Shown piece by piece: positions 3,378-64,000 of a DNA stretch of 64,000 nucleotides. Where the stretch lies: positions 240,896-304,895 of the forward strand of contig CBDAPO010000005.1 in assembly GCA_965198515.1 (NCBI GenBank). The letters run 5' to 3'. The translations under genes and the position numbers were made by a program. The notes under the pieces were generated by a model, which saw only the letters and a program-made list of their open reading frames with translations, made no database searches and was not told the DNA's origin. Each line of letters opens with the position of its first letter. Position 1 is the first letter of the stretch. Source of the stretch: Granulicella sp. (GTDB lineage Bacteria; Acidobacteriota; Terriglobia; Terriglobales; Acidobacteriaceae).

Positions 3378-4931
3378 ACGGTGCCGCCCGTGTACCTCGC
3401 GCGCCACCGGCTCAGCGCCGCCATGGTAGATCTCGCCCAGAAACACCGCATGCGGAGGAAGCGCCAGGTGAGTTGTTGTCTGGCCGGTCATAGCCTCCTT
3501 GCCAAAGGCAAACAGCGGCCGCAGTCCCCCGGGGCGCATGCCGGCAGCCTGGAGATCGCTGTCCAGCGTCAACAGCACAGGTTGGTCGGTAAGGTTGGCG
3601 GCAACCACCACGTTGGCCACGGTCCGCGAACCCGCCGGCGCACGCCGAATCCAGACTAGAGCTCCGTCGGCGTCGCGGTTCAGCATCGTCTGCGTGCCAT
3701 TGCGGAGGCTCGCGTTGTCGTGATGCAGCCCGATCAGCTGACGATAGGCGTTCAGCAGCGACCTGGGGTCGCGGTCTTCCGTGATCACATTCAGGACGGG
3801 GCCATTGGTCGGCGCGACGGGCAGCGTCCCCGCCGTGAAGCCGGGCAGTGTGTCGGCGTCGGGCGGAGCTGGCGGAATATTAGCGTCCACAGCGACATGC
3901 GCTGGGGCTGCCATTCCCGCCGTCAGGCTGCGCGGAGGCGGTTGGTACGGGTGGTATGCGCCGTATTCGGTCTCTGAAGCGGGCTTTGGGACTTCGGTAT
4001 GTTCGGTAGGAGCCGGGGTGTGGTTCGAGGGCGTCCACTGCATCACGGGCAGCGCTTTGCCCGCGCTCGCGCTGCTGTCCGCAACGGCCGGGTACAGATC
4101 GAGACCCAACTCATCGCCGAAGTCGAAGATCGCGGCGCCGCGGGAGGCCAGCAGCATGGCCGCATCGGCCGCCGCGTTGGGAGAGGCGCTCGCCGGATCT
4201 GCCGCAAACTGCAGCACTCCATTCGTTTCCGCGTCCGCCCCCGCGCTGGCGGCCGCCAATACGGTCCGCAACTGCACAACACCCGCCCCCGCTACCGGCA
4301 GAGCCGCCGCGGTGACCAACTGGCCCCCGTGCCCTGGGGTCGTCGCGGTTGCGCCACCCCTCTCCCGCCTCCGGAGTGGGGCAGGTGCGCTGATGGCAGC
4401 GCCCGGGATGGGATCACTGAGCAGCACGCGCTCTCCTGGCAGGCTTTGCAGCATCTGCCGCAGCGAGGCGGCCAAGGCCGGGTACCCGCCGTCGGCAGCA
4501 GTTACCCTTCCCGCCGGGGGCAGGGCCACCCCGGCCACGCCCGCACCCAGCCAGCCATGGACTGTATTCAGCAGGGTGTCGTGTGGCCCCTGCAACAGGG
4601 CCGGGTTCAGCGCAATCACTACCCGCAGGTGGTGCCGGCTGGCCTCACGCACCAGGTCTTCCAGGCCGTCCGCGTCGAAGCTGCCCTCCAGTAGCAGCGC
4701 ATCCACACCCACGGATTGCAGGTAGTCCAACCGTTGAACGATGCCCTGGAGATCGCCTTTGCCGTTCCCGCTGCCGTCTTGAAACCGCGCCGGGTCCATG
4801 CGGTAGAACACGGCGCGCCGCCACCAGGCCTCGGGCGCCACGCCCGATCCAGCCCACCCAGGTCGGGCCAGCACCTGGGCTGCGGCCGGGAGAACTCCCG
4901 CCAGGCAAAGGCCGAGAACAATGCGCTTCAC
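3354..4931 (-). CDS. Secreted GH13 alpha-amylase-like protein, probably catalytically inactive
   Basis: WWRRAVFYRMDPARFQDGSGNGKGDLQGIVQRLDYLQSVGVDALLL and C-terminal DPRSLLNAYRQLI are GH13 hallmarks; region II reads GVAGVALP with no nucleophile Asp. Confidence 0.8.
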   Translation of the reverse strand: MKRIVLGLCLAGVLPAAAQVLARPGWAGSGVAPEAWWRRAVFYRMDPARFQDGSGNGKGDLQGIVQRLDYLQSVGVDALLLEGSFDADGLEDLVREASRHHLRVVIALNPALLQGPHDTLLNTVHGWLGAGVAGVALPPAGRVTAADGGYPALAASLRQMLQSLPGERVLLSDPIPGAAISAPAPLRRRERGGATATTPGHGGQLVTAAALPVAGAGVVQLRTVLAAASAGADAETNGVLQFAADPASASPNAAADAAMLLASRGAAIFDFGDELGLDLYPAVADSSASAGKALPVMQWTPSNHTPAPTEHTEVPKPASETEYGAYHPYQPPPRSLTAGMAAPAHVAVDANIPPAPPDADTLPGFTAGTLPVAPTNGPVLNVITEDRDPRSLLNAYRQLIGLHHDNASLRNGTQTMLNRDADGALVWIRRAPAGSRTVANVVVAANLTDQPVLLTLDSDLQAAGMRPGGLRPLFAFGKEAMTGQTTTHLALPPHAVFLGEIYHGGAEPVAREVHGRHRSGHRVRR

Positions 4932-16485: not shown

Positions 16486-16678
16486 GACCCCTCCAGTGTA
16501 GAACCCTTCGCGCCCCCTTTCAGCGGGCCTTCATGATTGATCCCATGGTTGTGTCCCGTACGGCATTTCCGTCCGTCCGGAAGCAACTGTGATCTTCAAG
16601 GTGCAACGGCACCAGCCGCTCCCTGGGGCGCGTCTTACAGACAGCCCTACCATCCGGTTCTCAGGAAGAAGATCCCGC

Positions 16679-19231
16679 GTGCGTTCCTTCAGAGTTTTGG
16701 GTCTGTTCTGTGTTGTTGCGCTTGTTCTTACGCTTGCAGGTTGTAACGGCGGCGCTATCCCTGGGAGCTTCACCCTGGCAGTCTCCCCCGCAAGCGTCAG
16801 CGTGCAGGCCGGCAGCACAGTCCAGTTCAGTGTGAGCGCGGCAGCGACCGGAAACTTCAACAGCACCGTCACGGTCGGCATCGCGGGACTGCCCACCGGT
16901 GTGACCGCCAGCCCCGCCACTCTGACGCTAACGCCCGGCACCCCACAAACCGTGACGCTGACCGCAGCTTCCGCGGCCGCAGCCGGCAACAGCACTGTGA
17001 CGCTCACCGGCACGGGAGGCTCACTCGGTCAGACGGCTACGGTTGCGCTCACCGTCACGCCCCAGCCCACCTTTACGCTCGCGATCACTCCGGCCACCTT
17101 GGCAGTACAGGCGGGCGCCAGCGGACAATTCAGCGTCACGGCGTCGCCCTCCAACGGCTTCACTGCGCGCGTCACCGTAGCCGTCACGGGTTTGCCAGCG
17201 GGCGTGACAGCTTCCCCGGCGTCGCTGACGCTCACCCCGGGCACCCCGGCCACGGTGAGCCTCGCCGCGACCGCCACGGCCGCAGCCGGTGCCACCACGG
17301 TTACGCTCACCGGCACCTCCGGGTCGCTGACGCAGACTGCGACGTTGGCGCTGACCGTATCCGCCTCCCCGACCTATACCGTCAACCTCACGGAGCCATC
17401 GACGACTCTGACCGCCGGGGGCGCGGGTCTGCCGGTCACCTTCCAGGTGGTCCCGAGCGGCGGCTTCAGCGGCACCGTCGCCGTTACCCTATCTGGACTG
17501 CCGGCTGGCGTCACCGCCGCACCTGGCACCACGTTCAACATCAGTCCTGGCACAAACGCCACGGTCACCCTGACCGCCGCGGCTACAGCCACACCCGGCG
17601 CCATCTCCATCCAGGTCGCCTGGGCCACCACGGCCAACGTCACACCCACTGCTTCCAGCACAGTGCTGAAGCTGACGATCGCCCCGCCCACCGGCGCGGA
17701 CGTCACGACCTACCACTACGACAACACGCGGCAGGGCTGGAACTCCAAGGAGGTTTTGCTGACCACGGCCAACGTTAACAGCACCACCTTTGGCCTGCTC
17801 GGCAACTACCCCGTCGACGGCAAGGTGGATGCGCAGCCGTTGTATCTCGGCGGGCTGACCTTCGGCACAGGCACCGCGGCCCACACCGACAACGTCGTGT
17901 TTGTTGCGACCGAGAACGACAGCGTCTACGCCCTGAACGCCGCGACCGGCGCACAGGAGTGGAAGACCTCCGTGCTGGGCAGCGGCGAAACCCCAAGCGA
18001 CAGCCGCAACTGCGGGCAAATCGTGCCGCAGATCGGTATCACGTCAACGCCAGTGATCGACCGCAGCTACGGCACGAACGGGGCGATCTTCGTTATCGGC
18101 ATGAGCAAGGATGCCACCGGCGCCTACCATCAACGCCTCCACGCGCTGGACCTGTTGAGCGGCGCTGAACTGCCTAACAGCCCTACCGAGATCACCGCTT
18201 CCTTCCCTGGCACGGGCGACGCCACGGCCAATGGCGTTGTTCCCTTCAGCCCCGGGCAGTATGTCGCACGCGCGGGTCTGCTGCTGATGAACAGCACGGT
18301 CTACGTTGGCTGGAGCAGCCACTGCGACATTCGCCCGTATACGGGATGGGTGATGGGCTACAGCGAAGGCACCCTGAAGCAAAGCTCCGTCATCAATCTC
18401 ACGCCAAACGGCAGCGACGGCTCCGTCTGGATGAGTGGCTACGGCCTGGCCGCAGACACCTCCAGCAACATCTTCTTTGCGGACGCCAATGGGACGCTGG
18501 ACGCGGGCTTCAACGGCAACGGCTTCCCCAGCCAGGGCGACTTCGGCAACGCCATTGTGAAGCTTTCCACCTCCGGCAACAGCCTGGCCGTTGCGGACTT
18601 CTGGGAGCCCTACAACACGGTTGCGGAGTCCGACGCCGATGTCGACCTGGGCTCAGGCGGGGCCATGCTGCTCCCGGACCTCACCGACAGCAAAGGCGCC
18701 GTGCGCCACCTGGTGGTCGCCGCCGGCAAGGACACGAATATCTACGTTGCCGACCGCGACAACATGGGCAAGTTCTCCGCTGCAGGCAGCAACACCACGC
18801 TGTACCAGGAGCTCCCAGGTGCGTTGCCGCAAGGGGCATGGGCAGGTCCGGCCTACTTCAACAACACCGTTTTCTACGGTGGCGTGAACGACAATTTGCG
18901 GGCATTTTCGATCACGAACGCCCTTCTCAGCAACGCTCCGACCAGTGTTTCCAGCGCAACCTTCGGCTATCCAGGAGCAACGCCGTCGGTCAGCTCCAAC
19001 GGATCGGGGAACGGCATCGTGTGGGCGCTTGAGAGCACCGAGAACGCACCCGCCGTTCTTCACGCCTTCGACGCAAGCAACCTGCAGCACGAGCTCTACA
19101 ACAGCAAGCAGGCGGCGAACAGCCGCGATGCTTTCGGCAATGGCAACAAGTTCCTGACGCCGGTGGTCAGCAACGGCATGGTGTTTGTCGGCACACCGTC
19201 GGGCGTTGCTGTCTTTGGGCTGCTCCACTGA
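16679..19231 (+). CDS. Large lipoprotein: three Ig-like repeats plus PQQ-like beta-propeller
   Basis: Lipobox LAGC; three ~101-aa Thr-rich repeats starting at 16766, 17069, 17372; DVTTYHYDNTRQG..VDGKVDAQPLY domain. Confidence 0.85.
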   Translation: MRSFRVLGLFCVVALVLTLAGCNGGAIPGSFTLAVSPASVSVQAGSTVQFSVSAAATGNFNSTVTVGIAGLPTGVTASPATLTLTPGTPQTVTLTAASAAAAGNSTVTLTGTGGSLGQTATVALTVTPQPTFTLAITPATLAVQAGASGQFSVTASPSNGFTARVTVAVTGLPAGVTASPASLTLTPGTPATVSLAATATAAAGATTVTLTGTSGSLTQTATLALTVSASPTYTVNLTEPSTTLTAGGAGLPVTFQVVPSGGFSGTVAVTLSGLPAGVTAAPGTTFNISPGTNATVTLTAAATATPGAISIQVAWATTANVTPTASSTVLKLTIAPPTGADVTTYHYDNTRQGWNSKEVLLTTANVNSTTFGLLGNYPVDGKVDAQPLYLGGLTFGTGTAAHTDNVVFVATENDSVYALNAATGAQEWKTSVLGSGETPSDSRNCGQIVPQIGITSTPVIDRSYGTNGAIFVIGMSKDATGAYHQRLHALDLLSGAELPNSPTEITASFPGTGDATANGVVPFSPGQYVARAGLLLMNSTVYVGWSSHCDIRPYTGWVMGYSEGTLKQSSVINLTPNGSDGSVWMSGYGLAADTSSNIFFADANGTLDAGFNGNGFPSQGDFGNAIVKLSTSGNSLAVADFWEPYNTVAESDADVDLGSGGAMLLPDLTDSKGAVRHLVVAAGKDTNIYVADRDNMGKFSAAGSNTTLYQELPGALPQGAWAGPAYFNNTVFYGGVNDNLRAFSITNALLSNAPTSVSSATFGYPGATPSVSSNGSGNGIVWALESTENAPAVLHAFDASNLQHELYNSKQAANSRDAFGNGNKFLTPVVSNGMVFVGTPSGVAVFGLLH

Positions 19232-19275
19232 CGATGCGAAACAAGATGTGAGTGAGGCGCGGCGACCAAGCCGCG

Positions 19276-19956
19276 CTATTCCCGTACTTCCGTTCTCCGC
19301 GGCAGTACGCCTGCCGGCACAGATACAGTGTTCTGCCAATCAACCTGGAAGCTGCCGGTGTAGCCGAACAGCTTGCCCCAGCGCCGGTTGCTCACCACGA
19401 CCTCAATGCGAAAGCAGCCGGCATCATCGTCATACCATTCGCATACCTCGGCCACGCCGCTGAACAGCATGGGAAAGCGAAACGCAACTCGCCCTTCATA
19501 GAAGCGCTGCTCCCCGGAACGAAGCCGCATGCCGCCGTTAGGCGCGACGCTCATGTCGATATCCACCGCGAGATGCTGATGCGTTCCCAGGTAGTCCACA
19601 ATCTTGCCGCGCTGTTCGCTGTAGATCATGTAGGCGTCAAAGCGGCGTCGCCGGCCGACCTCAAAGGTGCGGAGCCACGTCACCGTTTCGCGCCCAAGCG
19701 CATCCTTGTAGGCATAGTTCTGGATGGTGAACGGCACCGCATGGCCGCGCTCCGGAAACATGATCGCGCGCCATGTGCCGATCCACAGAAACGGCAACGT
19801 GAACCAGCGACCATGCCACACGCGCTCCATGGTGCCGCGCCCAATCGCACCGATTCCGGCCGTGGAATCAAAGCCGAAACGGCGCTGAATCATGGGGTGC
19901 AGCTTCTGAAACTCATCGTGTCCGAGAACGCGCTCATAGATCGAACGGAAAGCCAT
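19276..19956 (-). CDS. DUF4166 domain protein (YndH-like)
   Basis: FQKLHPMIQRRF, VPFTIQNY, DYLGTH, NRRWGKLFGYTGSF. Confidence 0.8.
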   Translation of the reverse strand: MAFRSIYERVLGHDEFQKLHPMIQRRFGFDSTAGIGAIGRGTMERVWHGRWFTLPFLWIGTWRAIMFPERGHAVPFTIQNYAYKDALGRETVTWLRTFEVGRRRRFDAYMIYSEQRGKIVDYLGTHQHLAVDIDMSVAPNGGMRLRSGEQRFYEGRVAFRFPMLFSGVAEVCEWYDDDAGCFRIEVVVSNRRWGKLFGYTGSFQVDWQNTVSVPAGVLPRRTEVRE

Positions 19957-19968
19957 CAGGGTTGGGCC

Positions 19969-20874
19969 TCAGCCGAGTGGGACAGGTGGTTTGCGCAGGC
20001 AGCGTGTGGCAAACGCGGTGTAGCGCCACGCGAGCCAGCCAATGACGCTCAGGGTAAAGACGCCAAGGTTCAGCGTCACAGGGTTGAAAGCAGCCTGGAG
20101 ATACGCAGGCGAGGAGTGCGCCACCGCCACGGTCGCGAACACCATCGCTGCGGCACTCAGCAGCAGGTACGCCCGCCATCGCCATAGCAGCAGTCCAGCC
20201 AGGCCGATCAGCACCTCGGCCGTGCCCACCACGGGCAGCCATGCATCGGAAAGGCCGGAGTTGTGCAGCATCGTGAGCTCGTCGCCGTTGTGGAACAACA
20301 GCTTGGGGATCAGCCCATGCCACAGCCAGACGAACACGACGGCAAGACGGGCAAGCGTGTAGATGGTGCTGCACGTTCTTACCAACTCAGGCGGCACATC
20401 CTCATCCACCCAGAAGCGCAGCCGGTCGAAGCTCCACGCCGTGGCCCAGCCAATCAGCGGACGAAAGACAAGGTCAGCAGCACGACCAGAGAAGCCAAAG
20501 CGCGTGCGGTAGTCATACCAGGTGAAGAATCGCGTTGTGCCGGTGGCTGAAACGGGGACGTACTTCCAATAACCGCTGCCTTCTTCGATCAGCGACAACT
20601 TCGAAGCTGACCAGAAGCGCAGGGAAGAGGTGCGCACGCTCTGCGGTCCCTCCCGTGTAGCGATCGACTCACCCGTGCCAACGATCGCCCCGCCGAAACC
20701 GATGCGCGTGGCATAGGTAAATCGCTGCGGCTCGCTCTCATGGGCGCGAGGCAGATAGGTAATCTTGGAGAATCGCAGGTCCCAGCGTTGATGAAGAGCC
20801 GGGTCCTGCGTCAATTCCCACAGCCGCTCGAGTGAGCCGCGCATGCCCGCCTCAACGTACAGCCCACTGCCCAT
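19969..20874 (-). CDS. SRPBCC-like plus DoxX-like membrane protein (YndG-like)
   Basis: LWELTQDPALHQRWDLRFS N-domain; VWLWHGLIPKL and FNPVTLN DoxX-like C-domain. Confidence 0.8.
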   Translation of the reverse strand: MGSGLYVEAGMRGSLERLWELTQDPALHQRWDLRFSKITYLPRAHESEPQRFTYATRIGFGGAIVGTGESIATREGPQSVRTSSLRFWSASKLSLIEEGSGYWKYVPVSATGTTRFFTWYDYRTRFGFSGRAADLVFRPLIGWATAWSFDRLRFWVDEDVPPELVRTCSTIYTLARLAVVFVWLWHGLIPKLLFHNGDELTMLHNSGLSDAWLPVVGTAEVLIGLAGLLLWRWRAYLLLSAAAMVFATVAVAHSSPAYLQAAFNPVTLNLGVFTLSVIGWLAWRYTAFATRCLRKPPVPLG

Positions 20875-20928
20875 GGCAGCAGCCTAGCACCTGGGCTGCA
20901 GGGCTCTACCACCGCATTGAAAAGACCC

Positions 20929-22998
20929 TTAGTCCTCCGTTGATTCGCCGGGCGTTTCCGGGTTGGCTTCGGCACTTGTGAGTGCGTCCGCTGAAGTTTC
21001 ACTCTCTGAGATCTGCGCCGGGGCAAAGGGATGCGGCGCCGTGGGACCTTCGCCGAGGCTTTCGCCAGCCGCGGCCATCGTCTTGCCGCCGATCGCGCCG
21101 CTCACCGCGGAGTCCATCATCAGCTCCGCCAGGCGTCGCGTCTTCTTGTCCAGCTGCTCAATCGAGTTGCGAATGATGCGGTAGTCATTACCGGTCAGCG
21201 AAGCTTTCAGGTCCAGCGTCGCAGCCTTGATCTGTTCGTGTTCGATGGAGGTCAACTGCTGCCATACGGGCTGCGCCATAGCCTTTTCTACGGCGTCGTA
21301 GATCGTTTGCCCCTCGTTCTTGGCCTCGATTACCTGCCGTTCATGCAAGTCCTGTTCTGCCATGTCGAAGCTCTCCAGAATCATCGATTCCACTTGCTCG
21401 TCGGTGAGGCCGTAGGTGGGTTTCACCTCCACCTGGGCCTCCTGGCCGCTGCGCTGCTCCCGTGCGCTGACATGAAGGATGCCGTTCGCGTCGATCAGGA
21501 ACTTGACCTCGATACGCGGCAGGCCGGCGACCATGGGCGGAATGCCTTTGAGATCAAACCGGGCAAGCGAGCGGCAATCTTTCGCCAACTCGCGCTCACC
21601 CTGCAGGACGTGGATGGCCACATTGGTCTGCCCATCGACGCCCGTGGTGAAGTGCTCCGTCGCGCTGGCCGGGATGGTGGAGTTGCGCTGGATGATCTTC
21701 GCCACCACGCCGCCCAACGCTTCAATGCCAAGCGATAGTGGAGTCACGTCCAGCAGCAATAGTTCGTCCGTCGCCGCGTTTTCTGTCCCGGAAAGAATCT
21801 GCGCCTGCACCGCCGCACCGAGTGCAACGACCTCATCAGGATTCAACTCCGTATGCAGAGTTTTGCCACGCGCCTCCAAATCGAAGAGCTTGGCCACCAG
21901 CGCGCGCACAGCGGGAATGCGCGTCGAGCCACCGACCATCACGACTTCGTCGATCTGTTCAGGCGTCAGCTGTGCATCCTTCAGCGCCTGCCGTACAGGC
22001 CCTGCGGTGCGCTCGATCACGCTCGCCGCCAGGCCCTCAAATTGCTCCCGTGTAATTTCACGCAGGTACTGCTTGCCCTCGCCCTTTTGCTTGTCATTCC
22101 CGAAGGGAATCTCCGTTTGCGCCGAACCCGCAGGAATCTCAAGCTGAATCCGCGCACTCCCCTGCGACGACAACGCAATCTTTGCCTCGATGACTGCCTT
22201 GCGCAGAGCCTGGATCACCTCGGGCTGGCCGCTCACATCGACGCCCAGGTCACCCTTGATGTCGTCCAGCGCCACAGCCGTCAGCAGGTTGTCGATGTCG
22301 TCGCCGCCAAGGTGCGTATCCCCACCCGTAGCGATGACCTCGAAGATGCCCTCATGCAGCTTCAGGATGGAGATATCGAACGTTCCGCCGCCGAAGTCAT
22401 ACACCGCGATCACGCCGTCTTTGCCGCCATGCAACTTGTCCAGACCATAGGCCAGCGCCGCTGCCGTGGGCTCGTTCACCAGGCGCAATACTTCCAGCCC
22501 GGCAATGCGACCGGCGTCCTTGGTGGCTTGCCGTTGCGCATCGTTGAAGTACGCCGGCACGGTGATGACCGCCTTCGTCACCGGCCCGCCAAAGAAGCGT
22601 TCGGCGTTGCGTTTCAACTGCAGCAGGACATAGGCCGAAACCTCCGGCGGCGTCAGCGTCAGGCCGCCGACGTTGAGCTTCAACACCTCACCCGCCTGCA
22701 GGCCCCTGGCAAGCTTGAACGGGAACAACTTCAGCTCCGGCTCCACGTCAGTGAGGTCGCGGCCCATCAGGCGCTTGACGCTGTACACCGCGTTCTCCGG
22801 CTTGGTCAGCAGCACATCGCGCGCCGCATTGCCCACAGCAAAACCCTGCTCCGTGTCCTGATCGAATGCGACGACGCTGGGCACAATGGGCGAGCCGTCT
22901 TCGCCGGGGATGACCGCCGGCTGGTCGCCCTGCATGAATGCTACGAGCGAGTTGGTGGTACCAAGATCGATGCCGACGACGCGCTGCTGTTCTGCCAC
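20929..22998 (-). CDS. hscA: Fe-S assembly chaperone HscA (Hsp70)
   Basis: [50 protein letters not shown]; near fdx; ~16-aa insert in subdomain IIB. Confidence 0.88.
22087..22112. repeat. REP-like palindrome inside hscA coding sequence
   Basis: TGTC-ATTCCC-GAA-GGGAAT-CT (hairpin 22096-22110); sister copy at 63470-63488 in opposite orientation. Confidence 0.75.
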
Positions 22999-23208
22999 AA
23001 GTTGCTCCTGACGGGCAAACGGATGCCCGCTTCTATTGTCCTACCTCAACCGAATCCTCTGTACAGATGCCCCGGGCGCGCAGGATGATGCTGGCCAAAC
23101 CACAACGATGCGGTCGCGATCCGCTACGCGTCTTAGGATTCGGAGCCAATACAGCCTCTGGACGGCACCGGAGCCAGCAGTGTCGGACGAATCCGCATCC
23201 AATGACGC

Positions 23209-23715
23209 ATGAGCGAAGAGAAAGCCCGCCCATATGTGCATCTGCTGGAAGGCCGCAACCCGGCTGAGGTGCTGCGCGCCACACCGTCACGCCTGATCAA
23301 GGTGCTTACCGCGTTGCCACCCGAAACCATCGAGCACAAACCCGCGCCGCACAAGTGGAGCATCCGCGAAATCCTGTGCCACATGACGGACTGTGAGGTC
23401 GCCTGGGCCTGGCGCCTGCGCGCCGTCTATGGCGCCGACAACCCCACGCTGCAGCCCTTTGAGCAGGACGCCTGGGCACGCGCCTATGACGGCGTGGAGT
23501 ACACCACAGAAGCTGCCCGCTCCACATGGGTGCCCCTGCGCCGCTGGAACGTTGCCTTGATCGACGGGCTGACCGAGGCGGACAAGCTCCGTCCCGCAAC
23601 ACATCCTGAGCTGGGCAACATCACGCTCTGGAACATCGTGGAGATCGCCGCCGGCCACGACCTGCATCACCTGAGCGCGCTCGAAAAACTCGTGCCCAAC
23701 GCTGGGCCGCAGTAG
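23209..23715 (+). CDS. DinB family protein (thiol transferase-like)
   Basis: KWSIREILCHMTDCE, AGHDLHH metal-binding His. Confidence 0.88.
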   Translation: MSEEKARPYVHLLEGRNPAEVLRATPSRLIKVLTALPPETIEHKPAPHKWSIREILCHMTDCEVAWAWRLRAVYGADNPTLQPFEQDAWARAYDGVEYTTEAARSTWVPLRRWNVALIDGLTEADKLRPATHPELGNITLWNIVEIAAGHDLHHLSALEKLVPNAGPQ

Positions 23716-26304: not shown

Positions 26305-29022
26305 CTAGTTATACGCCCGCTCCGCCGTGACGGTGCCGTCCGGGTGCAGCAGGAGCGTCTCCGCTCCCATCCTGTCCGTGCGATAGGTCTTTACGTGCGC
26401 TGCCTCCAGCCGGTCCAGAACCTCCCACCGTGGATGCCCAAAGGTATTGTGTTGGCCCACGCTGATCAGGGCAGCCTTGGGCGCTACGGCGGCGAGAAAC
26501 TCAGGGTTGGTCGACGTTCGACTCCCATGATGTCCCACCTTCAGCAGCGTCACTGGCTGCAGGCGTCCACTGGCCACCATGGCTGCTTCGCTTGGCGCTT
26601 CGGCGTCGCCTTCCAGCAGCACGCTGGCCCGTTGCCAGTCCAGCCGCATCACCAGGGAGTCGTCGTTGCGCGCCTCGCCGTAGTTCGCATAGCCACGCTG
26701 CGGAGAAAGAACCGTGGCCTGCATGCCTCCCCAATGGAGTTCGTCTCCGGCGGCCAGCCAGCGAACCTGGACCCCCAAGTGGTCCGCTTCGGCCAGCAGA
26801 TCGCGCATGGCTGACGATTTGCCAGGCTCCAGGCTCAGCCAAAGCTCCCGTGGACGCAGGTCACGCAGCACCGCGGGCATGCCGCCGATGTGGTCACTGT
26901 GCCCGTGGGTGACCACAACGGCGTCCAGCCGGCGCAGATGGCGCGACCAGAGAAAGGGAGCCACCACCTGCTCGCCGACGTCCCACTTGGTCGCGATGCG
27001 GCCGACAGGACCGCCGGCGTCCACCAGCATCGTGCGGCCTTCGGGCGAGACGACAAGCACGGAGTCGCCCTGGCCGACGTCAATCGCGGTCACCTCCAGC
27101 ACGCCCGGGTGCACGTAGGCGGGTGCCGGCCACACCGCCGCAACCGGCACACACAGCGCCGCTGCCAGGCCACCCCAGGCCAGTGTCGGCCGCCGCGCGC
27201 GCAGTCCCCAGATGGCGAAGGCCGCCAAAGCCCCGCAAACAAGGACGCAGACTGTTGGCGGCGAAGGCACCCGGAGGTCACCCAGCCTTGCGTGGCCTAA
27301 CGCGCCGACAACAGCACGCACCAGGTGCAGCACGGCCGCGGTCACGATGGCGGGAGCAACGGCCAGCCATGGGCCGAGCAGGCCCAGCACAAAGGTCAGC
27401 ACCGCAGCGCCGGCCAGCAACATCGCAAGCGGCGCAACAAACAGGTTGCCGGGCAGCGCCAGGGGCACCAGGCGATGAAAGTACACCGCCATCGGCAGTG
27501 CCATGCACAGCTCAATGGCCGCCGAGAACAGCAGGGCTTGCGCGACGGTGATTGCCAGTTGGACGCAGAGGCGTGGAAGAGCCGCGGCCCAGCGTTTGCC
27601 GGCAAGGTCGCGGCAAACCGAGCCCCACATGCGCAGTTGCACCCGGCGCGCACCGACCGTTGGGGGCAGGAAGGCATCCAGCTCGACCACGTGCAGGCGC
27701 GCCGCCGCGGAGCGCCATGAGCCGAGCCACCGCTCCCCCAAGGGCACGGCCAAGCCGGCGACGGCGAGGATGACCAGCGAGGTCATCTGGAAGCTGGCTT
27801 CGTACAACGCGCGTGGGTCGGCTACCAGGATCAGCAGCGCGGCCACGCCAAGGGCGTTCAGCCCTGATCCTTGCCGGTCCAGGGCTCGCGCAATCAGGTA
27901 CAGCGAGCTCATTGCCAGGGCGCGCTGGGCGGGCACGCCGAAGCCAGTCAGAAGCGCGTACCCGAGCGCAAGGACGATCGTCACGGCAACCGAAGGGACC
28001 TCCGGCACGCGTGCCCGCCGAAGCAGCCAGAAAAGCGCCCCGGTCAGCATCGCCACGTGAAGCCCGGAGACGACAAAGAGGTGAAAGGTGCCGGTACGTT
28101 CGAAGCCGGCGCGCTGCTCTGCGCCCAGCTGGGTGCGATCGCCAAACAGCATCGCGGCGAGCATGCCGGTGTCCTCTGGCGTAAGCCGGAGCGGCCCGGG
28201 AAGACTGCGAATTGGGGATTGTCCGGGCAGAGCTTCCAGACGCGTCGCAGCCCAGTGCTGCCATTCGCCCAGCCGGCACCGCAGGCCGGGCGCACGCGTT
28301 TCCAGCACACGGACCGTGGTGACTTTGGACGTTCCGGTCGCGCCTACACCTTGCCCCAGAAGCCAGTCCGCGTAGGAGAAGGCTCCAGGATCGCGGTAGA
28401 TCTCCGGTTCGCGAAGGCGCACCGGAGCTTCGATGACGTCGCCGCAATGTAGCGGAACAGCGCCGCCCACCACGGTCAATCGGAGGCCACCCTGCACGGG
28501 GTCCATCACCGAAACATCCGGTGTGACTCGCTCCACCGCATCCAGCACGAGATCGACGCTCTGAATCGCGGCGGCACCGTCGGTTTCCCACCCACCCGGT
28601 TCTACCTGCCACGGTTCCAGCGGCTGCACGGGGGCACCCTGCACAGGTTTGACCTCGCGGAGCGAACGGACCGAGGTGACCCGGCCACGCACCGTTCGGC
28701 TCAGGCCGTCGGCGTAGCCGTGCACCGCGAATTGGCGGTCGATGGGCGTTTGCACCTGCGCACACCAGCAGCCCACGGCCGTCCAGAGTCCAAGAATGAC
28801 CAGCCACGATGCGCGCTTCGCCCACCGCTGGCTCGCGAAAAAAAGCCCCAGCAGGGCAAGAAGGCTCAGCAGCAGGCCCAGGGGCCCATGCCATTGCCGC
28901 GCACACAGGATGCCGCCCGCAAACGCCAGCGCGGCCAGCAGCATCGGCACGCCACGGGTGCGCAGCGGCTCCACGGGCGGACGCCCGCTCATCCAAAATG
29001 TGGCAGCACCAAAGCTCGGCAT
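26305..29022 (-). CDS. comEC: ComEC/Rec2 competence protein
   Basis: GTFHLFVVSGLHV competence domain; C-terminal MBL fold IDVGQGDS, THGHSDHIGG, LKVGHHGS. Confidence 0.93.
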   Translation of the reverse strand: MPSFGAATFWMSGRPPVEPLRTRGVPMLLAALAFAGGILCARQWHGPLGLLLSLLALLGLFFASQRWAKRASWLVILGLWTAVGCWCAQVQTPIDRQFAVHGYADGLSRTVRGRVTSVRSLREVKPVQGAPVQPLEPWQVEPGGWETDGAAAIQSVDLVLDAVERVTPDVSVMDPVQGGLRLTVVGGAVPLHCGDVIEAPVRLREPEIYRDPGAFSYADWLLGQGVGATGTSKVTTVRVLETRAPGLRCRLGEWQHWAATRLEALPGQSPIRSLPGPLRLTPEDTGMLAAMLFGDRTQLGAEQRAGFERTGTFHLFVVSGLHVAMLTGALFWLLRRARVPEVPSVAVTIVLALGYALLTGFGVPAQRALAMSSLYLIARALDRQGSGLNALGVAALLILVADPRALYEASFQMTSLVILAVAGLAVPLGERWLGSWRSAAARLHVVELDAFLPPTVGARRVQLRMWGSVCRDLAGKRWAAALPRLCVQLAITVAQALLFSAAIELCMALPMAVYFHRLVPLALPGNLFVAPLAMLLAGAAVLTFVLGLLGPWLAVAPAIVTAAVLHLVRAVVGALGHARLGDLRVPSPPTVCVLVCGALAAFAIWGLRARRPTLAWGGLAAALCVPVAAVWPAPAYVHPGVLEVTAIDVGQGDSVLVVSPEGRTMLVDAGGPVGRIATKWDVGEQVVAPFLWSRHLRRLDAVVVTHGHSDHIGGMPAVLRDLRPRELWLSLEPGKSSAMRDLLAEADHLGVQVRWLAAGDELHWGGMQATVLSPQRGYANYGEARNDDSLVMRLDWQRASVLLEGDAEAPSEAAMVASGRLQPVTLLKVGHHGSRTSTNPEFLAAVAPKAALISVGQHNTFGHPRWEVLDRLEAAHVKTYRTDRMGAETLLLHPDGTVTAERAYN

Positions 29023-62828: not shown

Positions 62829-63401
62829 ATGAGCCTGACGTTGAATGCGAATGAGACGGCGCTGGTGTTGATTGATCTGCAGCGGGGGATTGTGGCGCGT
62901 GATTTGAAGCCGCATACGAGCAAGGATGTGGTGGAGCGGTGTGCGCGGCTGGCCCAGGCGATGCGTGCGGCGGGCGGAACCGTGGTCTATGTGCATGTGC
63001 TGATGAACGAGATTGCACGGCCGGCCGGGGATCGACCCATGATGCCGCCCAACGCGCCGCCACCGCCGCCCGAGGCCTCCGAGCTTGTGCCGGAAGCCGG
63101 GTATCAGCCCGGAACAGATGTGTTGATTGCGAAGCGGCAGTGGGGTGCGTTTACGGCGACGAACCTGGACCAGGCACTGCGGCGGCGTGGCGTGAAGACG
63201 ATTGTGATGGGTGGGATCGCGACGAACATTGGCGTGGAATCTACGGCTCGGTCAGCCATTGAATACGGGTACCAGCTGGTGTTTGCCGAGGATGCCATGT
63301 CGACGATGAGTGCGGAGATGCAGGCGTTTGCGGTGGGGACGATCTTTCCGATGATGGGCTTTGTGCGGTCTACGGAAGAGGTATTGGCGGCGTTGGGGTA
63401 A
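62829..63401 (+). CDS. Isochorismatase-family hydrolase (YecD-like)
   Basis: LIDLQ, IAKRQWGAF, GIATNIGVESTAR. Confidence 0.9.
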   Translation: MSLTLNANETALVLIDLQRGIVARDLKPHTSKDVVERCARLAQAMRAAGGTVVYVHVLMNEIARPAGDRPMMPPNAPPPPPEASELVPEAGYQPGTDVLIAKRQWGAFTATNLDQALRRRGVKTIVMGGIATNIGVESTARSAIEYGYQLVFAEDAMSTMSAEMQAFAVGTIFPMMGFVRSTEEVLAALG

Positions 63402-63469
63402 GGCGCTCACGCGGAGGGCGCGAAGGTTTCGCTGAGGGCGGGGAGGGTTCGTCGCCGGGGTAACAGCGG

Positions 63470-63488
63470 GTTCCCTGCGGGAACGACA
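63470..63488 (+). repeat. Intergenic REP-like hairpin, sister of the hscA insert
   Basis: GTTCCC-TGC-GGGAAC-GACA. Confidence 0.7.
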
Positions 63489-63494
63489 GCAAGA

Positions 63495-63542
63495 AATGCA
63501 AATGCAAATGCAAGTGCAAGTGCAAGTGCAAGTGCAACTGCG
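63495..63542 (+). repeat. Hexamer tandem repeat
   Basis: (AATGCA)3(AGTGCA)4 ACTGCG. Confidence 0.95.
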
Positions 63543-63580
63543 AACGCAACGGGCGCTAAGAACGCCAAGGTACGCGACGA
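63543..63580 (+). repeat. Nonamer-periodic dispersed repeat copy
   Basis: 32/38 identical to the reverse complement of 9103-9140. Confidence 0.85.
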
Positions 63581-63586
63581 AAAGCG

Positions 63587-63617
63587 AAGGCCTTCACCCG
63601 GTGGGGGTGAAGGCCTT
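63587..63617. terminator. Bidirectional terminator candidate between convergent genes
   Basis: AAGGCCTTCACCC-GGTGG-GGGTGAAGGCCTT (13-bp perfect stem). Confidence 0.85.
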
Positions 63618-63626
63618 TCTGCTGTT

Positions 63627-63700
63627 GCTACTTCCTACTTCCTGTTTGCTGTTTGCTACTTCCTGTTTGCTGTTTGCTACTTCCTGTTTCCTGTTTCTGT
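63627..63700 (+). repeat. Heptamer tandem repeat with 21-nt higher-order period
   Basis: Ten units of (G/C)CT(A/G)(C/T)TT; (CCTGTTT GCTGTTT GCTACTT) occurs twice. Confidence 0.92.
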
Positions 63701-64000
63701 TTAGAAGATGATTTTCGCGCCGAACTGGGTGTTGAAGGGTTCGCCGGCGCCGATGCCGGGGGCCCCGTTGTAGTCACCGATGGTGTCGTAGAGGGTGGGG
63801 TTGCCGCCTGCGGTGGCGGAGGGTGGCGCGTAGTTGATGCGGTTGAAGACGTTGAACATTTCGGCGCGCAGCTGGACAGTGACGCGCTCGGCGATGTGGG
63901 TGTTCTTGAAGACCGATAGGTCGACGTCAGAGTAGCCGGGGCCGTAGAGGGAGTAGCGGCGCGAGGTGCCGAAGCTGCCCGGGGCGGGGTTGGTGAAGGC
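63701..64000 (-). CDS. C-terminus of a TonB-dependent receptor (5' part outside window)
   Basis: FGTSRRYSLYGPGYSDVDLSVFKNTHI..VQLRAEMFNVFNRINY..FNTQFGAKIIF-stop, translated by hand. Confidence 0.9.
   Translation of the reverse strand, partial: AFTNPAPGSFGTSRRYSLYGPGYSDVDLSVFKNTHIAERVTVQLRAEMFNVFNRINYAPPSATAGGNPTLYDTIGDYNGAPGIGAGEPFNTQFGAKIIF

Follow-up and report, generated by a model that had tools for sequence, protein, structure and literature searches.

A dispersed hairpin repeat of Acidobacteriaceae in frame within the chaperone gene hscA, and its putative GIY-YIG nuclease partner

Background

Among the described repeat systems, the closest to the element studied here are the NTS repeats of Neisseria (CGTCATTCCCGCGMAVGCGGGAATCYRG); SsnA, a single-domain GIY-YIG nuclease of 94 amino acids, binds and cleaves them in single-stranded form (PMC11893778). 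The ssnA gene is itself flanked by the repeats; cleavage needs the GTC before the palindrome, and binding by SsnA needs the C after it (PMC11893778). The CGTC/TGTC-tagged repetitive extragenic palindromes (REPs) of Di Nocera et al. (2013) include dRS3 from Neisseria and both RPE-4 and RPE-6 from Rickettsia; they have no transposase partner, some of their copies are intragenic and in frame, and no Acidobacteria are listed for the CGTC repeats (PMC3733652). Here we describe an element of this kind in hscA, the gene for the Hsp70 of iron-sulphur cluster assembly, within a stretch of 64,000 nucleotides from Granulicella sp. (Acidobacteriaceae; GenBank assembly GCA_965198515.1, contig CBDAPO010000005.1), called the window throughout.

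The hscA segment is very probably a copy of a hairpin repeat of Acidobacteriaceae that is partnered with a nuclease, has landed in the gene in frame and is translated as a tolerated, disordered loop. The original prediction, made from the letters of the window only, had described the palindrome as a selfish element at the loop of Hsp70 subdomain IIB and had compared it with the GTCATTCCC..GGGAATC elements (Neisseria dRS3, Rickettsia RPE). This comparison is apt, as dRS3 and RPE-4/6 are in the CGTC/TGTC-tagged REP superfamily (PMC3733652). The further proposals of the prediction fared differently and are taken up with the results that bear on them.

Results and discussion

An in-frame palindrome in hscA and a second copy in the window

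The host gene (20929–22998, minus strand) is an open reading frame of 689 amino acids whose product scores as HscA with the NCBIfam model NF003520 (709.5 bits, cut-off 620); the HscA equivalog model TIGR01991 gives 698.7 bits, slightly below its own cut-off of 708.55. Within this gene, 51 nucleotides (22075–22125, minus strand) encode the residues S292–G308, which are extra in comparison to insert-less orthologues: the segment is supported by a profile match, by codon alignment with two insert-less orthologues (L002 and L125), by sequencing depth and by the per-residue confidence (pLDDT) of an AlphaFold model. Its hairpin core ATTCCC-TTC-GGGAAT (22096–22110, minus strand), with a 6-bp stem and a 3-nt loop, is present in both the minimum free energy fold and the centroid fold. 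On the coding strand, positions 22110–22096 read ATT CCC TTC GGG AAT and continue with GAC AAG CAA AAG; the plus strand at 22092–22114 reads TGTC-ATTCCC-GAA-GGGAAT-CTCC. An element-like sequence, GAG ATT CCT GCG GGT (E-I-P-A-G; 22126–22140, minus strand), is found 27 nucleotides upstream of the hairpin.

The second copy, at 63459–63507 on the plus strand, is defined by profile match and gene calls and is intergenic: it is bordered on one side by an isochorismatase gene (62829–63401, plus strand) and on the other by the 3' end of a gene for an outer-membrane barrel protein (63701–64000, minus strand), the two genes being convergent. Its core is GTTCCC-TGC-GGGAAC (63470–63484) and positions 63470–63496 read G-TTCCC-TGC-GGGAA-C-GACAGCAAGAAA, with an A:T to G:C change at the base of the stem in comparison to the hscA copy. 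Both copies and the compensated stem base are thus as originally described. The head of the intergenic copy is TGTC-GT... and its A-rich, T-poor tail is a hexamer array, (AAATGC/AAGTGC)x9, at 63494–63549 (plus strand). The convergent intergenic region (63402–63700) consists almost entirely of repeats: besides the element, there is a 20-nt repeat present twice (63410–63451), a GC-rich, terminator-like hairpin of 13 pairs (63587–63617) and a 21-nt repeat present three times (CTACTTCCTGTTTGCTGTTTG; 63635–63696), which resembles the A-rich element tails on its minus strand.

The motif TTCCCNNNGGGAA occurs twice in the window where 0.05 occurrences are expected, and none of 100 shuffles reached two. 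Both sites are found with a profile made of copies from other genomes, 22073–22120 (minus strand) at E=5.4e-12 and 63459–63507 (plus strand) at E=1.1e-3. A search of the whole window against Rfam returned no family at gathering score. The repetitive nature of the hscA segment is also obvious from sequencing depth: in the metagenome holding this genome, the summed word depth is about 1000 over 22078–22131 and 4–5 on the host contigs, a difference of about 200-fold. The host metagenome contigs stop and resume within the hscA element, as is expected at a repeat. An insert-less variant of this hscA was absent from the contigs of four runs, although contigs drop rare variants. An assembly artefact was considered as well and is ruled out by the recurrence of the in-frame insert in independent assemblies, including complete chromosomes.

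A dispersed repeat family in Acidobacteriaceae

The family has the consensus AAAMGCAG-ATTCCC-TKC-GGGAAT-GACA followed by an A-rich, T-poor tail, which reads TGTC-ATTCCC-GMA-GGGAAT-CTGC on the other strand. The original prediction had made its case dependent on further genomic copies. The exact 18-mer core TTCCCTTCGGGAATGACA is present in at least 115 stretches of species-representative genomes; by our own estimate, about 17 matches would be expected by chance in 596 Gb. About nine-tenths of these stretches are from Granulicella, Edaphobacter, Bryocella and other Acidobacteriaceae, and a few are from metagenome-assembled genomes (MAGs) of Verrucomicrobia and Bacteroidota. Bases that the search did not specify are conserved too: in 162 distinct copies, GCAG directly precedes the stem at 93–97%, the stem opens with A in 89% and the 3' tail contains many A and hardly any T. 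A strict superfamily pattern (GCRG, five-pair arms, GACR) has 12 matches in 176 kb that had not been selected for the element, in comparison to 0.02 in shuffles.

Of 220 copies, 149 (about 68%) are intergenic by gene calls based on the GC content of third codon positions (GC3), and only about 18% of the DNA is intergenic by the same calls. The intervals with intergenic copies are convergent in 36 cases, divergent in 21 and co-directional in 69. Neighbouring copies are arranged head-to-tail in 56 of 70 pairs (80%), with spacings of at least 29 nt and mostly 35–90 nt, and hexamer runs such as (GGCAAN)n often trail the copies in other genomes. This arrangement, with its hexamer tails, suggests that the arrays grow by local slippage or by unequal exchange. 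Among the stem variants, the compensated ATCCCC/GGGGAT is found five times and half-changed versions twice, GTTCCC/GGGAAT, which has a G:T pair, 16 times and GTTCCC/GGGAAC twice.

The exact core is also present outside the Acidobacteriota. Three MAGs of Saprospiraceae (L012, L042, L066) have the exact 18-mer core with flanks of their own and in inverted pairs, and two further Bacteroidota (L029, L069) also carry the core. In four MAGs of Verrucomicrobia (L027, L028, L036, L051) the copies resemble the acidobacterial family, which could be due to mis-binning or transfer. A second dispersed repeat, GATGGGGCACCCGG..., adjoins many of the element copies.

In-frame copies in other proteins

In 0.97 Mb of fetched loci, copies in the QIPFGND frame were found in five further proteins identified by Pfam, all on the coding strand: within the core-binding domain of sigma-54 (RpoN), in the linker of a double aldehyde dehydrogenase, within the ABC_tran domain of an ABC ATPase, at the N-terminus of PurF and in a C-terminal extension of TrpA. 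The encoded peptide is (E/T)(K/T)QIPFGND(K/R)Q in these proteins, and the expectation of the original prediction that the element makes peptide in proteins other than HscA was borne out. One of the six frames of the element has a stop (GAA TGA), and that the same polar frame is used in each of the six hosts hints at filtering by selection. Where copies at the edges of open reading frames are read otherwise (FPSGMT, SFPKGIC), translation is unlikely. No candidates came from a database search for which a synthetic peptide of three IPFGNDKQK units was used. At one locus (L059, about 3920–3958), the GATGGGGCACCCGG... repeat is part of the protein as well, giving DGAPRVVALR directly ahead of the element in the linker of the dehydrogenase.

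A small GIY-YIG nuclease gene flanked by the repeats

The original prediction expected a REP-associated tyrosine transposase (RAYT, TnpA(REP)) as partner of the element. The gene that is flanked by the elements encodes a small GIY-YIG nuclease instead, as in the Neisseria NTS-SsnA system (PMC11893778). Four such open reading frames of 107–112 amino acids were found in the fetched loci (PF01541, E about 1e-14), with PF01541 as the only confident domain of the proteins. The nuclease genes of L005 (G. rosea), L010 and L097 are flanked by elements: in L005 and L097, one element is just upstream in opposite orientation and another is at the 3' end of the gene, and L010 has six copies before the gene and nine after it. 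In the genes of L005 (5415–5744, minus strand) and L097 (2434–2772, plus strand), the last residues (...DSLRE*) and the stop codon come from the element, read in its third frame (GAT TCC CTT CGG GAA TGA).

For a test that was not biased towards the element, 80 metagenome loci were fetched with the nuclease protein alone. An element is present within 400 nt upstream of the gene in 67 of the 71 loci with enough sequence and downstream in 64 of 73; 59 loci have both. Element density is 4.4 per kb close to the nuclease gene and falls to 0.24 per kb at distances of more than 700 nt, an 18-fold difference, and the upstream copies have one orientation in 113 cases and the other in 10. Most of the close nuclease homologues are on contigs of 0.5–3 kb, and such very short contigs fit genes that are bounded by assembly-breaking repeats.

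The class of the hairpin tracks the similarity of the nuclease to the G. rosea protein. Most nucleases with more than about 60% identity to it are accompanied by the short ATTCCC-TKC-GGGAAT, and some at 63–69% identity by ATTCC-TCCGCTGCGCTRC-GGAAT instead; more distant nucleases have ATTTC-..-GAAAT, ATCC-..-AGGAT, ATCCC-..-GGGAT or GTCC-..-AGGAT. The only relative of solved structure is the UPF0213 protein BH0048, a weak match at E=0.055, and a search of NCBIfam with the nuclease found no match. By analogy with SsnA, the nuclease may recognise the hairpin (TGTCATTCCCGAAGGGAATCTGC) as single-stranded DNA.

Distribution and history at the hscA site

The best 120 homologues of the window HscA, which are 80–100% identical to it and all Acidobacteriaceae-like, served as orthologue set. 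A long insert is present in 29 of them, a short one in seven and none in 84. The original prediction had expected close relatives to have no insert: this is true for most, including P0004, P0005 and P0009, each about 90% identical to the window HscA. Insert-bearing sequences fall into at least ten separate clades of a neighbour-joining tree with the region masked, a single tree without bootstrap or support values.

At the DNA level, eight orthologues have different palindromic cores between common flanks (..ACG CAG | core | GAT GAC A..); the alternative cores include ATCCCC-TCC-GGGGAT, GTCCTTCGCTCCGCTCAGGAT, GTCTCTCCACTACGGCCGTCGGCCTCCGGTCGAGAT and ATCCCCTCCCATTCGGCTACGCTTAGGGCGGAT, and the long hairpin classes of the hscA site are also found between nearby genes. 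On a Granulicella chromosome (L001), the orthologue carries three units of 45 nt in tandem at the site, with the cores GTTCCC/GGGAAT, ATCCCC/GGGGAT (changed on both sides) and ATTCCC/GGGAAT, and two intergenic copies are found in the same 22 kb as this hscA.

Two histories can be considered. Either there was one ancient insertion, followed by exchange of alleles and gene conversion, or independent insertions occurred at a hot spot; the chances of the former are about even. For a single insertion speaks a module that all hairpin-bearing alleles have in common. The residue before Pro is Ile in 28 and Val in one of the orthologues with a long insert, and Leu in 81 and Val in three of those without insert, and the distance from the Ile codon to the hairpin is 27 nt in hairpin-bearing alleles across clades (24 nt in one). 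Independent events are unlikely to have recreated the same upstream module each time. The 40 residues upstream of the insert are also more alike among insert-bearing alleles (0.79) than between the classes (0.72), and the rest of HscA shows no difference in the same comparison (0.857 and 0.850). The original prediction took the upstream codons for native ones that had guided the insertion by homology; this did not hold, as GAGATTCCTGCGGG is only present in insert-bearing alleles and Ile at this position in none of the 84 insert-less ones. The GAGATTCCTGCGGG / E-I-P-A-G stretch may rather be a decayed half-copy of the element.

Exchange between lineages is suggested by the DNA identity of the window hscA to ten orthologues (L001, L002, L118–L125), which ranges from about 0.66 to 0.93 in different parts of the gene; the gene of L122, for example, reaches 0.93 in the first 40 codons and 0.66–0.75 in the middle. 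These sequence comparisons suggest a mosaic history of hscA, but the sliding identity of the ten orthologues shows no clear imported tract at the insert itself. Homologous exchange is also hard to reconcile with orthologue DNA that differs by 15–25%. The independent insertions are supported by the number of insert-bearing clades, a count that has the limits of the tree it was taken from, and by the hairpin class of the L120 hscA, which recurs 1.8 kb away on the same contig. Our reading of the data is that the module arose once, that lineages then exchanged it and that other copies supplied new cores.

The inserted loop of HscA

In an alignment with Escherichia coli DnaK, the extra residues of the window HscA fall into a gap next to A290–H295. 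An AlphaFold model made with 58 close homologues, of moderate overall quality (mean pLDDT 64), has strands at residues 281–288 and 309–316 that flank the insert, and residues 293–306 between them have a pLDDT below 50. The insert is thus the tip loop of the subdomain IIB beta-hairpin and predicted to be disordered. With the profile match and the absence from most close orthologues, this agrees with the core of the original prediction, a dispersed palindromic repeat that has inserted in frame at the IIB loop of HscA.

Codon use and sequence comparison suggest that the palindrome is maintained as DNA and not through selection on the peptide. With the codon usage of hscA, the chance that IPFGN is spelled ATT-CCC-TTC-GGG-AAT is about 0.004; three codons of the hairpin core (ATT, GGG and AAT) are rarer ones for a gene with a GC3 of 0.77, and orthologues with only 57–64% of synonymous codons in common with the window hscA again have this core spelling or a compensated one. 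The peptide itself would then be neutral or nearly so.

The most serious alternative is that the peptide is adaptive: it would recreate a loop as in subdomain IIB of DnaK and alter nucleotide exchange or partner binding, which is compatible with an origin from a repeat. This is improbable, even though the insert is at the position of a loop that contains a GrpE-signature motif in DnaK, without counterpart in HscAs (PMC8215388), has the same frame throughout, is kept in many lineages, in up to three units, and is accompanied by the greater upstream similarity among insert-bearing alleles. Against an adaptive peptide stand the 84 close orthologues without insert, including P0009, which shares the DoxX_3 neighbour of the window gene. 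Moreover, sequence and length vary freely, with about 6 to about 50 added residues, and the peptide changes with the hairpin class; the conservation is in the DNA palindrome with its rare codons, the loop is predicted to be disordered and the same peptide is present in five unrelated proteins. The claim of the original prediction that the loop is functionally sensitive and tunes nucleotide release has little to rest on, because the fast ADP release of HscA has been ascribed to missing salt bridges (PMC8215388) rather than to this loop, and the insert is dispensable in 84 of 120 orthologues.

Possible origin and maintenance of the palindrome

The explanation that we favour, a nuclease-partnered repeat that is tolerated in HscA, involves the following steps. 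A copy of the element would have landed in hscA at the tip of the IIB beta-hairpin. Its forward frame, free of stop codons and encoding a polar peptide, would be translated as a disordered surface loop and tolerated there. The palindrome may be maintained by gene conversion with other copies or by turnover linked to the nuclease. The site in hscA is likely a hot spot of recombination or turnover, which would explain the different hairpin classes at the same codon position. A stronger version, in which the hscA hairpin is a live target of the genome's own Ssn-like nuclease and single-strand cuts are repaired from other copies, with the nuclease of each lineage rewriting the codon position to the lineage's hairpin class, appears doubtful to us. 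If true, it would mean homing-like, nuclease-driven writing and rewriting of peptide loops in core proteins, with the flanking segment as a recombination hot spot.

Several points weigh against the favoured explanation. The window has only two copies of the element. A motif search found no nuclease gene in its 64 kb, and none could be tied to this genome among the best 120 homologues. The partner is Ssn-like by analogy: its membership in cd10448, its cutting activity and the mobility of the element are putative. The shared Ile-Pro-Ala-Gly module and its fixed spacing of 27 nt suggest one origin and not repeated insertion. Core invariance at the 18-mer loci is circular, as these were selected on the core, and the gene calls behind the intergenic bias are a crude GC3 heuristic, though one that reproduces the genes of the window. 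The hairpin is weak, about -6 kcal/mol and with no significant z-score. The published search string for Ssn-related motifs (SRM), HGTCWYN(0-2)YYVSBRHN(0-5)WNVSBRGN(0-2)RNCYNB (PMC11893778), is not matched, the short form being too short for it. Finally, the CGTC REPs have stems of 8–9 bp, loops of 4–5 nt and the tail CCA, and are mostly head-to-head dimers with a 'negligible' share of head-to-tail ones (PMC3733652), whereas the present element has a 6-bp stem, a 3-nt loop and a CTGC tail, and 80% of neighbouring pairs are head-to-tail. In view of the search string and of these differences, we regard the short form as a variant of the two systems rather than as a member.

All hscA orthologues compared at the DNA level were chosen without any pattern and show CAG|core|GAT GAC A. 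In folding comparisons with shuffled sequences, the insert gives z-scores of 0.55, -0.16 and 1.48, and only the triple array of L001 folds better than shuffles (z = -2.6); the element is defined by its sequence and not by the stability of its fold. The SRM string has no match in the window and six in nuclease loci of 267 kb in total; of four long classes compared with it, a single one matches, and so does the NTS of Neisseria, which served as control. Relatives have longer classes of this superfamily.

That the element is a classical REP and a RAYT, a Y1 transposase of the IS200/IS605 type, mobilises it is very unlikely. The element is a short, high-copy and mostly extragenic palindrome, and Y1 transposases with terminal inverted repeats are present in Acidobacteria, for example in G. 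mallensis and T. saanensis (PMC3733652), as are transposases of class 3 TnpA-Y1 (PMC6006769). The element lacks the GTAG head, however, and has the conserved ends GCAG and GACA (TGTC on the other strand). Repeats of the CGTC/TGTC type are reported not to be tied to transposase genes (PMC3733652), and the gene adjoining the element encodes a GIY-YIG nuclease, with no Y1 transposase having been searched for systematically. That the palindrome arose by chance from codons of a native, lineage-specific HscA loop, with a coincidental intergenic match, can be dismissed for practical purposes: stems of 6 bp with 3-nt loops are common (about 16 per 64 kb by our estimate) and the fold is not unusually stable, but the core occurs twice in the window against the 0.05 expected, about 48 nt including the flanks match the profile from other genomes at E=5e-12, hundreds of copies exist elsewhere, the codon usage makes the spelling improbable and the metagenome depth has a spike over the element.

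The neighbourhood of hscA

Relatives have Fer2/fdx, hscB-like, IscA and NifU_N/iscU genes near hscA, with a ferredoxin gene directly after it. The window hscA is outside any isc operon (16589–23715). Downstream of it are a DoxX_3 gene (19969–20874) and a DUF4166 gene (19276–19956), and upstream is a divergent DinB_2 gene (23209–23715). The region 16589–19231 encodes a protein of 880 amino acids with a repeated N-terminal region (LTLTPGTP...TLTA/TLTG recurring) and a weak PQQ_2/BamB-like match.

The window also contains the gene of a ComEC competence channel (26305–29022, minus strand), with Competence, Lactamase_B and DUF4131 domains. This makes uptake of single-stranded DNA, the setting of SsnA in Neisseria, plausible for this organism, which we mention as a lead only.

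Comparison with known repeat systems

With the NTS/dRS3-SsnA system of Neisseria, the acidobacterial element has in common the arms ATTCCC...GGGAAT, the GTC directly 5' and the C directly 3' of the palindrome, an orientation that is given by these non-palindromic flanks (xGTC head, C after the palindrome), a gene for a small single-domain GIY-YIG nuclease that is flanked on both sides (59 of 80 loci) and the co-variation of nuclease and hairpin. It differs in the loop (3 nt, and 8 nt in NTS, with a stem of 6 bp here), in the head and tail (TGTC and CTGC, in NTS CGTC and CYRG), in the size of the nuclease (107–112 amino acids, SsnA 94), in its host phylum Acidobacteriota and in its head-to-tail arrays with hexamer tails.

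The CGTC/TGTC REPs share the TGTC head variant, a stem that opens with two A-T pairs (TGTC-AT), an unpaired tail, the high copy number, the mainly intergenic location and G:T pairs in the stem.

The Rickettsia RPEs resemble the element as translated palindromes that add a surface segment to conserved proteins, have a stop-free frame and are patchy among orthologues. RPE-1 is far longer, in the order of 100–150 bp. The RPE host is an obligate intracellular alphaproteobacterium, and no nuclease is known as a partner of the RPEs; the unit of the present element has about 45–51 nt, and its hairpin class varies by lineage at one site.

The REP/BIME-RAYT system (REPtron) is similar in its short, high-copy palindromes, in a partner gene flanked by the repeats and in the layout, which resembles that of an insertion sequence (IS). 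The partner is HUH-Y1 there and GIY-YIG here, and the GTAG head is missing here.

Palindromic repeats in frame and hairpin repeats paired with a nuclease have thus both been described already; new are the short acidobacterial variant, the fact that it is linked to a nuclease, and a turnover among hairpin classes at a single codon position in a core chaperone. The recently described partnership between hairpin repeats and very small GIY-YIG single-strand nucleases is extended to soil Acidobacteriaceae, in a form so short that it escapes the published search string, and is linked to the old puzzle of palindromic repeats that are translated inside conserved proteins. On the practical side, the repeat breaks short-read assemblies and yields spurious open reading frames and extended N-termini. 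The hscA site is a natural experiment, with nothing, one unit, three units or another hairpin class depending on lineage, and makes three things testable: the recognition by a nuclease inside an expressed gene, hot spots of exchange, and the tolerated change of the tip loop in subdomain IIB of an Hsp70.

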